Assembly (NCBI GenBank): GCA_039822145.1
Contig: JBCBMU010000001.1
Span: 116,400 to 180,399 of the forward strand
DNA from: Pseudomonadota bacterium
GTDB taxonomy: Bacteria > Pseudomonadota > Alphaproteobacteria > Caulobacterales > Hyphomonadaceae
DNA: 64,000 nt
Reading direction: 5' to 3'
Under the pieces are notes generated by a model. The model did no database searches and was not told where the DNA came from. It was given only the letters and a program-made list of their open reading frames with translations. Positions 1-4,796 of this stretch are shown here, piece by piece. Made by a program: the position numbers and the translations under genes. Within the stretch, counting starts at the first letter, position 1. Each line of letters opens with the position of its first letter.

Positions 1-846
1 CGCTATGACGTATTTTTGGTCAGCACAGTCGCTGATCGTGAGAAAGCCGAGCTGATTGCGCGCCGGTTACGGGCGCTAAAGTTCAAAGTCCGGTTGGACA
101 AGAAACGCGAACATACAACGCCGACCCCACGCGATTACCGCGATGCCGACAATTCTCAATCGGTTCTGGTCCTATGGTCGAAGAGCGCCTGTGATACCAG
201 CAATAGCGATAGCGATTGGGTGCACGCCATTGCCCACCATGCGCGCTCCAAGCCCGGTGTGCTTTTGCAGTCCGGTCTCGATAAGACGGTTCCCGACGAA
301 CCGTTTAATGATGATAAGCGTTACGCCTTATCTGGCATGGGGCCGCGCAAACTGGTGGGCGGCTATTTTGAGCTTGTCGATGAGCTAGGGCGCCGCGATG
401 GTCGTAAAGACCTCCGGGCGTGGCTCGATCTAAAGCCGAGCGATAAAGATGGCAAAGCCGCATGGCTTGAGGCTCACCCGACGGATCCGCTGGCCGGCGT
501 GAAAAAGCCGGCGGCGACACAAGCTGCTCCAGCGGCGTCCGCCGCGGCGGAGAAAACGCCAATGCGAATTGGCGCGCCGCCGCTTAAGATCAATCCCCCG
601 GTTCCGCCTGAGCCGCAAGGGTTGGACATTGGACGGATCATGTTGGCGGCTGTTGGCCTCGTCATTCTGGCGATGCTGGTGATGAGTGCGAGCCTCCGAA
701 CCCAAGCCGGGTTGCCAGCGGCAGCGGGCGCCGGCGGTTTATTGCAAGACTGCCCGGCCGGCCAAATTCCTGATTATCTCTTAGACGATGCGTCGCGCGG
801 AACGTTGGAGCCTGGCCCGATCACCGACGATACGAGCGACGACTAG
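1..846 (+). CDS. TIR-like domain membrane protein, 5'-partial
   Basis: Frame is open from base 1 (RYDVFLVSTVADREKAELIARRL...VLVLWSKSA...SDWV), resembling bacterial TIR_2. Followed by an Ala/Pro linker and one hydrophobic helix (IMLAAVGLVILAMLVM). Confidence 0.6.
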   Translation, partial: RYDVFLVSTVADREKAELIARRLRALKFKVRLDKKREHTTPTPRDYRDADNSQSVLVLWSKSACDTSNSDSDWVHAIAHHARSKPGVLLQSGLDKTVPDEPFNDDKRYALSGMGPRKLVGGYFELVDELGRRDGRKDLRAWLDLKPSDKDGKAAWLEAHPTDPLAGVKKPAATQAAPAASAAAEKTPMRIGAPPLKINPPVPPEPQGLDIGRIMLAAVGLVILAMLVMSASLRTQAGLPAAAGAGGLLQDCPAGQIPDYLLDDASRGTLEPGPITDDTSDD

Positions 847-2337: not shown

Positions 2338-2391
2338 TTGACTCTTAGCGGTTTACAGGCGTAGTTTTACATCTGTAGCGCTACAAAGGCA
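2338..2391 (+). promoter_or_regulatory. Promoter with BlaI/MecI/CopY-type operators
   Basis: TTGACT (2338) and TAGTTT (2362). TACAggCGTA (2354-2363), perfect TACAtcTGTA (2368-2377) and a TACA half-site (2382) match TACA-N2-TGTA. Confidence 0.75.
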
Positions 2392-2396
2392 GGCTT

Positions 2397-2777
2397 ATGG
2401 CTAATCCAAACCCGTCAGAACTTGTGATCTTGAAATATCTCTGGGCCAGCGGCGCCCAAACCGCACGTCAATTGCACGAGGCGGTCGGGCCCTCCCAGGA
2501 TTGGCAATTGTCGACGACGCGAACCGTCCTCGGCCGGATGGAGGCCAAAGGCTGGGTCCAGCGCAATGGCAATGTCGACCCGGTGACGTTTGAACCCTTG
2601 CTCGACCGCGTGGAGACACTTGGCAGCTTGGTCCGCCATCTCGCTCGCAAAGTCTTGGACATGGATGGCCCCATTCCAGCCACCATGTTTGCCGAAAGCC
2701 CGCACCTGTCGGATGGCGAACTCGACGAGTTGGATGCGATTATTAACGCGGCCGAAGCGCGCGAAAAAAAGGAGTAG
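2397..2777 (+). CDS. BlaI/MecI/CopY family repressor
   Basis: SELVILKYLW...TTRTVLGRMEAKGWV winged helix; directly upstream of an M56 gene. Confidence 0.9.
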   Translation: MANPNPSELVILKYLWASGAQTARQLHEAVGPSQDWQLSTTRTVLGRMEAKGWVQRNGNVDPVTFEPLLDRVETLGSLVRHLARKVLDMDGPIPATMFAESPHLSDGELDELDAIINAAEAREKKE

Positions 2778-2780
2778 AGT

Positions 2781-4163
2781 ATGTCAGCCGTCTGGTTCAT
2801 CGGGTTTTCGCTGATTTGGACCGGGCTGTTAGCGGGGGGAGCTCAATTTCTGAGTCGTGAACCCGTTCCAGCTCGATTTGCGCACACAATCTGGCGTGGT
2901 GCAGCCTTCCTGGCATTTCTACCGTGGGTGATTGCCGGCATTTATGCTGTGCTGCCGACGACCCTGGCGACGCCGATTCCGGATATGCCGTATATTGGCG
3001 GGGCTGCCGAAGCGCTCTCGGCCTATGGCGCCGTGCCAACCGCCGCGGACGGGTCAGCGACACCGCTTGTCGGCCTCCTCTTATTCGCTGTGTTGATCGC
3101 AGGATGGGCGGCACGTTTGGGGTGCAATCTGCTGAGCCAAATTCGGTTGCAAGCGCTGAAGCGCCTAGCGACGCCAAATTCCGACGTCAGCGCCGATCGC
3201 TGGGCCAAAGCGCTTGGGCTCAGCCATGTCCCGCAGACCGCGAGCATCCCGCAAGGATCCCCCTTTCTAGCTGGCATGAGCCGACGCACGATTTATTTGC
3301 CGGAAGCGATTACCAATCAAACCGATGCGGACATCATTCTCGCGCATGAATGCACCCATATTGCGCGCGGTGACTTAGTGTCTCGTCCGTTCGAACGTTT
3401 GGTCGCGGATGTCTTCTGGTTTTCGCCCTTTGCGTGGATGATGCGACGCGAGCTCGATTATTGGCGCGAAGCGGCCACGGATGAGCAAACTGCAGCGCTA
3501 ACCGGTGACAATTTTGCGTACGCGCGAGCGCTCGCGAATACCGCGCGTGTGACCCGGCCGATGCCGCAGCAAGCGCTGCCCGTTGCGGCCTTTATTCTGC
3601 CACGGCATGAGACCCTTAAAAAACGGCTCACCCAGTTATTGCAGCGCGATGGGCGCAAGCCACGCCAAGGGATGGCAGTCATGGCTTTAGCGGCAGGCTT
3701 AGTCTTGGCGCCGCTGTCACTGGCGCAGGCGACGAGCGTCACGTCTGGCTCTATTTTCGTGCATCCGATTCTGACCACTGGCTCTAAGATTTCAGCCCCA
3801 TTCGGCGAAGTTTATTATGAGTGGGAAGACAAGAAAAAGTGGCATTATGGAGTCGATCTCGCAGCCAAATACGAAACCCCCATATACGCGCCCGCAAACG
3901 CCAAAGTGCTGTGGAAGGGCAAAAAAGACGATTATGGATATACCGTCGATATTGGCTTTGAAGATGGCCGCAAAATGCGCTTTGCATCCTTGCACAAAAT
4001 CCTGGTCGAGAAGGGGCAGAAGCTAAAAGCCGGCGACCTGATCGGAAAGGTTGGCAAATCTGCCCCCGGTTCGACTGGCCCTCACTTGCATCTGGAAGTC
4101 TATCAGGATGGTGAGCATGTCGATCCTGAGAACGTCAGAGGTTTGGTGCTGTATAAGTCTTAG
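2781..4163 (+). CDS. M56 (BlaR1-type) / M23 metallopeptidase fusion
   Basis: N-terminal TM helices, HECTHIARGD (HExxH..D), a further TM, then an M23 domain with HYGVD and HLH. Confidence 0.9.
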   Translation: MSAVWFIGFSLIWTGLLAGGAQFLSREPVPARFAHTIWRGAAFLAFLPWVIAGIYAVLPTTLATPIPDMPYIGGAAEALSAYGAVPTAADGSATPLVGLLLFAVLIAGWAARLGCNLLSQIRLQALKRLATPNSDVSADRWAKALGLSHVPQTASIPQGSPFLAGMSRRTIYLPEAITNQTDADIILAHECTHIARGDLVSRPFERLVADVFWFSPFAWMMRRELDYWREAATDEQTAALTGDNFAYARALANTARVTRPMPQQALPVAAFILPRHETLKKRLTQLLQRDGRKPRQGMAVMALAAGLVLAPLSLAQATSVTSGSIFVHPILTTGSKISAPFGEVYYEWEDKKKWHYGVDLAAKYETPIYAPANAKVLWKGKKDDYGYTVDIGFEDGRKMRFASLHKILVEKGQKLKAGDLIGKVGKSAPGSTGPHLHLEVYQDGEHVDPENVRGLVLYKS

Positions 4164-4244
4164 GTCAGGCCGGCGCCAAAGATCGGTTACCTAAGGGTTA
4201 AATTTCAAGTTTAACTTATTCTAATTTTGGTATGAGCGCCGCCT

Positions 4245-4796
4245 ATGCTTGTGTCTGCGCAAGCAGAGGAGGGTTCGGCTTTGCCCCGCATCGTATTGGT
4301 CTTACTATTTTCGTTAGCAGGCGTGCTTTTGTCTCCGTCCGGATCTGCCGAAGCCCCCCCGTCTTTTACCGACATTTCGTTTGAAGTGCCGGTGCTTGCA
4401 GAGGGCGTCCTCGTGGTCCCGTTCGGGCTCCGCGAAGATCCATTTACGAACCGGCCGTCTTGGCATGGCGGCATCGATATTAACGCCGCATGGGATGCGC
4501 CGATACGCGCACCGGCAACGGGCAAAGTGGTGCACGCAGGCCAAAAGTCAGGATATGGCCAAATGATTGACTTGAAAGTCTCGGACAATTGGGTGCTTCG
4601 CTTTGCCCATTTGAGTGCTCTGAGCGTTGAGCTTGGCGACGAAATCGCTGCGGGTGACGTGCTCGGACAAATTGGCAGCACCGGCCGCGCCACGGGGCCA
4701 CATCTCCATTTGGAAGCTTTGCACGGCGATAAGCAGTATGATCCGGTCTTGTTCACCGAATTAGAATTGTACGAGACCGAGTTGGCCCGGGATTAG
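4245..4796 (+). CDS. Secreted M23 family peptidase
   Basis: Hydrophobic N-terminus; HGGID, GYG and GPHLHLE motifs. Confidence 0.88.

Follow-up and report, generated by a model that had tools for sequence, protein, structure and literature searches.

A BlaI/BlaR1-type repressor-protease pair of Hyphomonadaceae with an M23 peptidase domain in the predicted sensor position

The 64,000-nucleotide stretch of contig JBCBMU010000001.1 analyzed here (the window) contains a locus of three co-directional open reading frames (ORFs) on the + strand, encoding a BlaI-family repressor, a fusion of an M56 membrane protease with an M23 peptidase domain, and a standalone M23 peptidase. This arrangement had been proposed in a first-pass annotation of the DNA, and all three ORFs were confirmed, each with its Pfam matches. 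The reading that we favor, with a probability of roughly one half, is that the repressor and the fusion form an autoregulated BlaI/BlaR1-type pair, in which the M23 domain would serve as a receptor rather than as an efficient hydrolase. The regulatory chassis included in this reading, in which repressor and operator are joined by an M56 protease that faces the cytoplasm and carries its C-terminal domain outside it, is highly probable on the strength of sequence and comparison with relatives.

2338..2343, + strand: -35-like hexamer TTGACT of the blaI-like operon, from conservation across Hyphomonadaceae upstream regions
2354..2363, no strand assigned: operator box 1, TACAGGCGTA, one mismatch to TACAnnTGTA, 14.9 bits by position weight matrix (PWM)
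2368..2377, no strand assigned: operator box 2, TACATCTGTA, a perfect BlaI/MecI/CopY-type TACAnnTGTA, 18.7 bits by PWM
2397..2777, + strand: BlaI/MecI-family winged-helix repressor, 126 amino acids (aa), Pfam PF03965 (Penicillinase_R)
2781..4163, + strand: BlaR1-like M56 membrane metalloprotease fused to a predicted periplasmic M23 domain, 460 aa, Pfam M56 and M23
3345..3359, + strand: M56 zinc motif H189-E-C-T-H193, invariant in 118/118 relatives, aligning with BlaR1 H201EYAH205
3468..3482, + strand: gluzincin motif E230-x-x-x-D234, invariant in 118/118 relatives, aligning with BlaR1 E242xxxD246
3666..3740, + strand: predicted fourth transmembrane helix, residues 296-320, from hydropathy, charge counts, and a helix of the AlphaFold2 (AF2) model
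3723-3731, + strand: signal-peptidase-like AxA site, A315-Q-A317 of P311-LSL-A315-Q-A317, from conservation in relatives
3786..4127, + strand: predicted periplasmic M23/LytM domain, residues 336-449, from Pfam, structure alignments, and Foldseek (ShyA, LytM, and others)

The repressor matches PF03965 over residues 7-117 (E 1.3e-17; 64.6 bits, cutoff 22.6) and aligns over its full length with MecI (PDB 1sd6/1okr) and Staphylococcus aureus BlaI, in keeping with a family of proteins of about 120-130 aa that join a DNA-binding winged helix at the N terminus to a helical dimerization domain at the C terminus. With the CopY-type model TIGR02698 it scores 45 bits, where the cutoff is 122. Its residues M97-F98 fall in register with the scissile N101-F102 of MecI/BlaI, and the Phe is found in distant homologues as well; the P1' Phe is nearly invariant among BlaI proteins (PMC9834060). 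Metal sensing of the CopY type (CxCxxxxCxC motif) was ruled out, since the repressor contains no cysteine.

Box 2 lies 20 nucleotides (nt) 5' of the ATG of the blaI-like gene and is the only exact TACAnnTGTA in the window, where 0.06 would be expected by chance. A PWM built from 15 boxes of related loci returned box 1 and box 2 as the only sites of the window above 11 bits. The right half of box 1 overlaps a -10-like hexamer, TAGTTT (2362-2367), and because the boxes cover this hexamer as well as the likely transcription start, the straightforward reading is self-repression, in which the pair would be autoregulated via the boxes of its own promoter. BlaI-type boxes 5' of blaI were kept in every related locus compared: an equivalent of the box was found in L001, L004, and L081-L085, a box at the position of box 1 is kept in relatives, and distant loci with M56-M23 fusions carry the variant GCGACAnnTGTCGC at the equivalent place. 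In 9/9 Hyphomonadaceae upstream regions, TTGAC stands 10-14 nt before the first box, with one or two boxes then preceding blaI. A scan of consensus sigma-70 promoters found no full match, so the promoter proposals made here rest on cross-species conservation. The BlaI-repressed promoter that had been implied earlier finds its counterpart in this conserved operator, with its two boxes unique in the window.

The start codon of the fusion follows the blaI stop by 3 nt. The encoded protein matches Peptidase_M56 (PF05569) over residues 28-284 (E 1.6e-16) and the NCBIfam model blaR1_generic over residues 101-321 (E 1e-9), and a 98% identical protein bears the name "M23/M56 family metallopeptidase." Residue conservation was counted in 118 relatives with at least 40% identity. 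The invariance of HECTH (189-193) and of E230xxxD234, which provides the third zinc ligand plus the salt-bridge Asp, agrees with the earlier description of an intact HExxH..D in the M56 part; the definition of the gluzincin motif and the roles of the BlaR1 residues follow PMC9834060. When the family profile was aligned by hhalign with S. aureus BlaR1 (blaR1 of plasmid pN315), H189/E190/H193 were paired with H201/E202/H205, E230/D234 with E242/D246, D198 with D210, Y247 with Y261, and R282 with R294. The near-invariant F271 came within one residue of F284, the P1' residue of BlaR1 autocleavage (S283-F284), in what is a weak alignment. Judged by its residues, the M56 part holds all of the catalytic determinants of BlaR1, and it is predicted to face the cytoplasm. 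No BlaR1 entry came up when the PDB was searched by sequence with the whole protein, a 14-sequence profile, or the M56 part by itself; among the 50 matches listed by Foldseek for the full-length model, 49 were structures of M23/LytM domains and none was BlaR1, giving no information on the M56 part.

From hydropathy, the fusion is predicted to cross the membrane four times, at residues 1-24, 36-64, 87-119, and 296-320. Lys/Arg residues number 2, 3, and 4 in the presumed cytoplasmic stretches and 0 in the 58-95 loop, which has three acidic residues. In the AF2 model of the fusion (pLDDT 81; pTM 0.61) the helices match the hydropathy segments, and the model contains a low-confidence loop at 61-93 and a separate beta-rich domain at 336-447. 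The predicted topology is that of BlaR1, with four membrane passes, the N terminus outside, the protease in the cytoplasm, and the C-terminal domain outside, and for this reason the M23 domain is predicted to be periplasmic; hydropathy, charge bias, and the AF2 helices are thus in line with the extracytoplasmic location assigned to it in the first-pass annotation. The periplasmic loop has a conserved core, PIPDLPY. In BlaR1, a loop of this periplasmic type plugs the sensor, and the conserved-core loop is its counterpart here. A match to the penicillin-binding (SxxK) domain PF00905 was not found in the fusion, whose C-terminal domain is PF01551 (M23); lacking a penicillin-binding sensor domain, the protein is BlaR1-like but no beta-lactam receptor.

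The match to Peptidase_M23 spans residues 355-449 (E 2.1e-25). The zinc ligands H355 and D359 (HxxxD) and H437, together with H435, the first His of the HxH motif (H435-L-H437) and the equivalent of LytM His291, are invariant or nearly so in the 118 relatives. The loss of zinc ligands known from EnvC, NlpD, and DipM was not seen, all three ligands being invariant. The LytM His260-equivalent, about 30 residues before HxH, is Ser403 (codon 3987-3989), in the context FASL versus YAHL in solved active enzymes; the M23 review places LytM His260 beside the catalytic water (PMC9662197). At this position, 70 of the relatives have Gln, 40 have Ser, and a single one has His. The M23 domain had been called intact, which holds for HxxxD and HxH but not for the His260-equivalent, replaced by Ser here and by Gln or Ser in 110/118 relatives.

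A library of representatives at 50% identity (P0176-P0320) yielded 1,487 proteins at E <= 1e-30, and of the best 150, which were examined, 110 are M56-M23 fusions. All 110 keep H..D and HxH; 61 of them carry His at the His260 position, against 39 with Gln, 4 with Asn, and 2 with Ser. The M56-M23 class therefore splits into a His type (about 55%) and a recurrent Gln/Asn/Ser type (about 45%), and the fusion studied here is of the second type. A recurrent substitution at this position with the zinc ligands kept is not described in the M56/M23 literature covered. Both M23 domains of the locus match NCBIfam models of DD-endopeptidases (among them MepM and ShyA), all far under the equivalog cutoffs.

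The gene for the fusion was found next to blaI in 10/10 Hyphomonadaceae loci examined and for 5 distant fusions; a scan of the genome collection returned mostly plain M23 genes and six loci with fusions. Linkage in relatives holds for the pairing of blaI with the fusion, seen in all loci examined, but not for the standalone M23 gene, which occurs in the closest clade only. The fusions vary in their C-terminal extensions and downstream genes. Some relatives carry a TonB_C domain after M23, giving proteins of about 620 aa (L083 5001-6866 of Hyphomonas johnsonii, L001, and P0099-P0120), and the fusion of Hyphococcus (L003 4959-7130) has 723 aa and a long, charged, coiled-coil-like tail. The gene after the fusion encodes a TonB-dependent receptor in Duganella (L009) and an AcrB-type pump in Hyphococcus (L003). 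One M56-M23 protein with 69% identity (P0060) appears under the label of a eukaryotic gene model (eukprot g2800.t1) and is most likely a bacterial contamination of the eukaryote data set.

In the locus studied here, the fusion is followed by the third gene and its upstream elements.

4187..4215, + strand: promoter-like element TTACCT, 17 nt, TTTAAC, from a five-locus alignment
4246..4265, + strand: hairpin TGCTTG/CAAGCA, from a five-locus alignment with partly compensatory changes
4281..4796, + strand: predicted secreted standalone M23 endopeptidase, 171 aa, Pfam M23 and orthologue alignment

The product of this gene matches Peptidase_M23 with E 2.5e-27. The longest ORF covers 4245-4796 (183 aa), but relatives carry in-frame stops in its 5' part and conserve a GGAGGG Shine-Dalgarno sequence (4268-4273), which makes TTG 4281 the probable start, yielding 171 aa compared with 169-174 aa in orthologues. 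The protein has an N-terminal segment resembling a signal peptide. Its HxH motif reads HLH. The zinc ligands (H62, D66, and H143) and both water-activating His residues (H110 and H141) are invariant in 35/35 orthologues, and since the catalytic set of five is complete, an active secreted endopeptidase is predicted. Orthologues at 49% identity or more are few and confined to one clade, and the next matches fall to 42%. They stand directly after the fusion and before prs in every such locus examined (L081, L085, and L087-L090) and are absent where the fusion is at most 61% identical (L086, L084, L082, L083, and L001). Recent duplication was ruled out as the origin of the gene, because its product and the fused M23 domain share only about 35-37% identity. 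The promoter-like element, with the family consensus T(A/G)AACA-17-TTTAA[C/T/A], lies within the 117-nt spacer that separates the gene from the fusion. A CtrA box in this spacer was considered and ruled out, the TTAA repeats being 9 nt apart, not 7. The hairpin is placed immediately 5' of the Shine-Dalgarno sequence and is kept in four related loci; as it has no U-tract, it is not an intrinsic terminator. No terminator was found in the spacer by a scan that gave a single, intragenic terminator-like site, and with none intervening, read-through could raise the expression of the standalone gene. It is likely but unproven that the standalone M23 gene is an output of the derepressed operon.

We favor a receptor role for the fused M23 domain because it occupies the position of the BlaR1 sensor and has kept its metal site while losing a catalytic His, and because a complete M23 enzyme is encoded separately and the loop core PIPDLPY is conserved. 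By analogy, such a receptor would parallel the BlaR1 sensor, which is a penicillin-binding domain trapped by acylation. The receptor might bind either a peptidoglycan peptide or an autolysin, and the peptide would be the most likely ligand, since the nearest enzymes are DD-endopeptidases. The signaling could then proceed in several steps: (i) the groove of the M23 domain becomes occupied by a peptidoglycan peptide, either a cross-link or a stem-peptide fragment; (ii) the occupied domain shifts relative to the conserved periplasmic loop (58-95) and helix 3; (iii) this shift activates the M56 site, leading to cleavage of the repressor near M97-F98 and derepression of the operon; and (iv) in the closest clade, the downstream catalytic M23 endopeptidase is raised by read-through, in addition to having its own promoter-like element. 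Turnover, as in BlaR1, may involve shedding of the M23 domain by signal peptidase at the AxA site that closes helix 4. The same proteolytic logic operates in BlaIR systems that do not respond to beta-lactams (PetRP and CenIR). More tentatively, and at clearly less than even odds, the fused domain may be an enzyme turned receptor, in which zinc is kept for recognition and the change from His to Gln or Ser slows or abolishes hydrolysis, so that the ligand is held long enough to switch M56. Whatever its ligand, the pair is not the "one-component system" of the first-pass annotation: sensing and proteolysis reside in one protein and DNA binding in another, and the term two-protein proteolytic relay describes them better.

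Several observations weigh against this interpretation. The hhalign match between the fusion and BlaR1 is weak (E 0.034; probability 1.5%), so that motif spacing is the main basis for the residue equivalences. With only about 15 residues, the linker may be too short for the M23 domain to reach the sacculus. With about 55% of the fusions retaining a full catalytic set, the class may be enzymatically active, and Gln or Ser at the His260 position is no proof of lost activity. Only DNA metagenomes matched the locus, and no RNA run holding its sequence was found. The PWM scan detected no BlaI box in the 117-nt spacer, and the standalone M23 gene is both without an operator and absent from most relatives; consequently, no BlaI-box target beyond the operon itself was identified. 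On the same grounds, together with its own promoter-like element and its restriction to the closest clade, the earlier suggestion that the standalone gene is the regulated output standing in for a beta-lactamase could not be upheld.

The structure of the helix 4 junction bears on an alternative, rather improbable in our estimate, in which the M23 domain is the effector and not the receptor: helix 4 would be an internal cleavable signal peptide, from which a soluble periplasmic M23 protein is released, while M56 and BlaI would only couple its production to some cue, possibly intramembrane or cytoplasmic. The sequence RDGRKPRQ precedes helix 4, whose end reads PLSLAQA followed by TS. With P311 invariant and A315 present in 112/118 relatives, the junction with the M23 domain has, at the sequence level, the form of a signal-peptidase site. 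The end of helix 4 is Sec-like: the basic RKPRQ leads into a core of about 13 hydrophobic residues, the Pro at -6 is invariant, and AxA occupies -3/-1. The sensor of S. aureus BlaR1 is shed after cleavage of the equivalent junction by the signal peptidase SpsB (PMC9834060), which makes shedding of the M23 domain a realistic possibility here, and release of an active enzyme would suit both the fusions among the best 150 that keep all catalytic residues and the existence of sensor-less BlaR homologues (Mycobacterium tuberculosis, PvmS, and CenR). On the other hand, shedding of BlaR1 is interpreted as receptor turnover and not as an output, A, G, V, S, T, and I all occur at -1, of which Val and Ile are poor for signal peptidase I, and in this clade the fused domain is without the catalytic His while a complete M23 enzyme adjoins it.

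Binding to a protein instead of to peptidoglycan would be expected if the M23 domain were a module of the LytM-factor type that contacts an autolysin (the neighboring M23, an amidase, or a lytic transglycosylase) and monitors or activates it, in the manner of EnvC, NlpD, DipM, and Csd2-Csd1. Catalytically impaired M23 domains typically work through protein contacts (PMC9662197), DipM, EnvC, and dimers of Csd1-Csd2 were among the structural matches of Foldseek, and an impaired and a complete M23 stand side by side here as do Csd2 and Csd1. We nevertheless consider this unlikely, as classical LytM factors have lost zinc ligands, all three of which are invariant in the fusion, and the neighboring M23 is missing from most family members and so cannot be the general ligand. 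An indirect sensor of beta-lactam or other cell wall antibiotic stress, in which the M23 domain detects products of peptidoglycan turnover and the regulon (beta-lactamase or penicillin-binding protein [PBP]) lies elsewhere in the genome, appears the least probable. Peptidoglycan fragments are implicated in BlaI inactivation in Bacillus licheniformis (PMC3305447), and the operator scan covered 64 kb of the genome only; yet the fusion has no penicillin-binding domain, the window contains neither a beta-lactamase nor a further operator, and CenIR, PvmSR, and PetRP leave beta-lactam resistance unaffected. The reading of the M23 domain as a receptor for peptidoglycan peptides remains the one that we prefer.

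The locus is a chromosomal pair of Hyphomonadaceae, and its host is a marine relative of the stalked bacteria. It is flanked by housekeeping genes on the minus strand, rplY (L25) and pth upstream and prs downstream, and the synteny with rplY-pth and prs is kept across the loci of relatives. Base composition is even throughout the window, and together with the conserved synteny this led us to reject an origin from a mobile element; the blaI-M56/M23 pair is vertically inherited in Hyphomonadaceae between rplY-pth and prs. The nearest database proteins, named "M23/M56 family metallopeptidase," come from genomes of Hyphomonadaceae (Henriciella and Hyphomonas) and from marine metagenome-assembled genomes, and the only sources of near-identical DNA were DNA metagenomes of marine, seagrass, macroalgal, and plastisphere origin. 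No Rfam family reached its gathering threshold in the window (1-64000). Separately, a 276-aa ORF at 16-846 (+ strand) has a weak match to TIR_2 (PF13676; E 1.9e-4, under the gathering score) and a hydrophobic segment at its C terminus, and L081, L085, L087, and L089 have an unannotated ORF of about this size in the corresponding place beside pth.

The M56-M23 architecture as such is already catalogued, under the PGAP name "M23/M56 family metallopeptidase," in InterPro, and in the survey of about 15,000 M56 proteins by Kurtz et al. (J Bacteriol 2026, PMC13492132), so that the existence of such fusions as an annotation class, noted in the first pass, is well founded. In that survey, nine M56 architectures reach 100 entries or more, M56+M23 being one of them; a penicillin-binding sensor is present in only about 6% of M56 proteins, about 96% are encoded within five genes of a BlaI homologue, and ligands are concluded to be not yet predictable. 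The review of M23 proteins lists M56 among their rare extra catalytic domains, with no role in peptidoglycan cleavage shown (PMC9662197), and our literature search found no paper testing an M56-M23 protein. To this picture the present analysis adds the conserved operator, the split between His and Gln/Ser, the signal-peptidase-like junction, and the clade-specific linkage to a predicted endopeptidase. If the more tentative reading as an enzyme turned receptor is correct, the fusion would be the first BlaR-type receptor to read cell wall structure directly, a homeostatic loop would be closed on endopeptidase expression, and the Gln variant, about a third of the fusions among the best 150 of the 1,487 proteins, would mark a dedicated subclass of sensors. 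How bacteria sense the state of their peptidoglycan and adjust their hydrolases is little understood beyond a few two-component and extracytoplasmic function (ECF) sigma pathways, and BlaI/BlaR-type pairs form a large, mostly uncharacterized signaling family, for whose non-beta-lactam class a member with an M23 sensor would offer a concrete case. The system is tractable, with a clear operator, a conserved chromosomal position, an adjacent predicted active endopeptidase in one clade, and cultured relatives (Hyphomonas sp. Mor2, Henriciella litoralis, H. aquimarina, and Hyphomonas johnsonii), and a residue swap between the His and Gln types could separate binding from catalysis.

Compared with the BlaI/BlaR1 and MecI/MecR1 systems of S. 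aureus, the locus is alike in its adjacent, translationally coupled genes for a repressor and an M56 protease, in the HExxH and ExxxD motifs and the equivalents of the accessory Asp, Tyr, and Arg residues of BlaR1, in the (here predicted) Nout-Cout topology of four helices with an extracytoplasmic C-terminal domain, in the Phe at the aligned P1' position of the repressor and the autoregulatory TACAnnTGTA operator, and in a signal-peptidase-type site where helix 4 meets the sensor. It differs in that the sensor has an M23/LytM zinc-peptidase fold rather than a penicillin-binding SxxK domain, the repressor gene comes first, there is no divergent gene for a beta-lactamase or PBP2a, and the host is Gram negative, with the sensor placed in the periplasm. 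The catalogued M56-M23 proteins share the domain order and the adjoining BlaI-like gene; the sources count the architecture only, with no operator, residue-level, or neighborhood analysis, no function, and no division into His and Gln types. Atypical BlaIR systems (Clostridioides difficile CenIR, Synechocystis PetRP, M. tuberculosis and Mycobacterium abscessus BlaIR, and Pseudomonas aeruginosa PvmSR) likewise place BlaI/CopY-family repressors under M56 proteases and respond to cues other than beta-lactams, which is the presumed logic of this locus, whereas their extracytoplasmic parts are short, unstructured, or absent and include no M23 domain; the CenIR regulon includes the peptidoglycan hydrolase Cwp6, and PetRP responds to copper.

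Among M23 proteins, EnvC, NlpD, DipM, Csd2, and LECT2 have the fold with an incomplete catalytic set and bind instead of hydrolyzing, and LECT2 is, like the fused domain, without one catalytic His. EnvC, NlpD, and DipM no longer have their zinc ligands and work without a coupled cytoplasmic protease or repressor, while the fused domain has lost only the His260-equivalent. MepM, ShyA, and Neisseria Mpg/NMB0315 match both M23 domains of the locus best, in sequence and in structure. In comparison with these active DD-endopeptidases, the fused domain is without one catalytic His, whereas the standalone protein shares their HxxxD...H...HxH pattern in a minimal form of 171 aa, free of LysM or regulatory domains.

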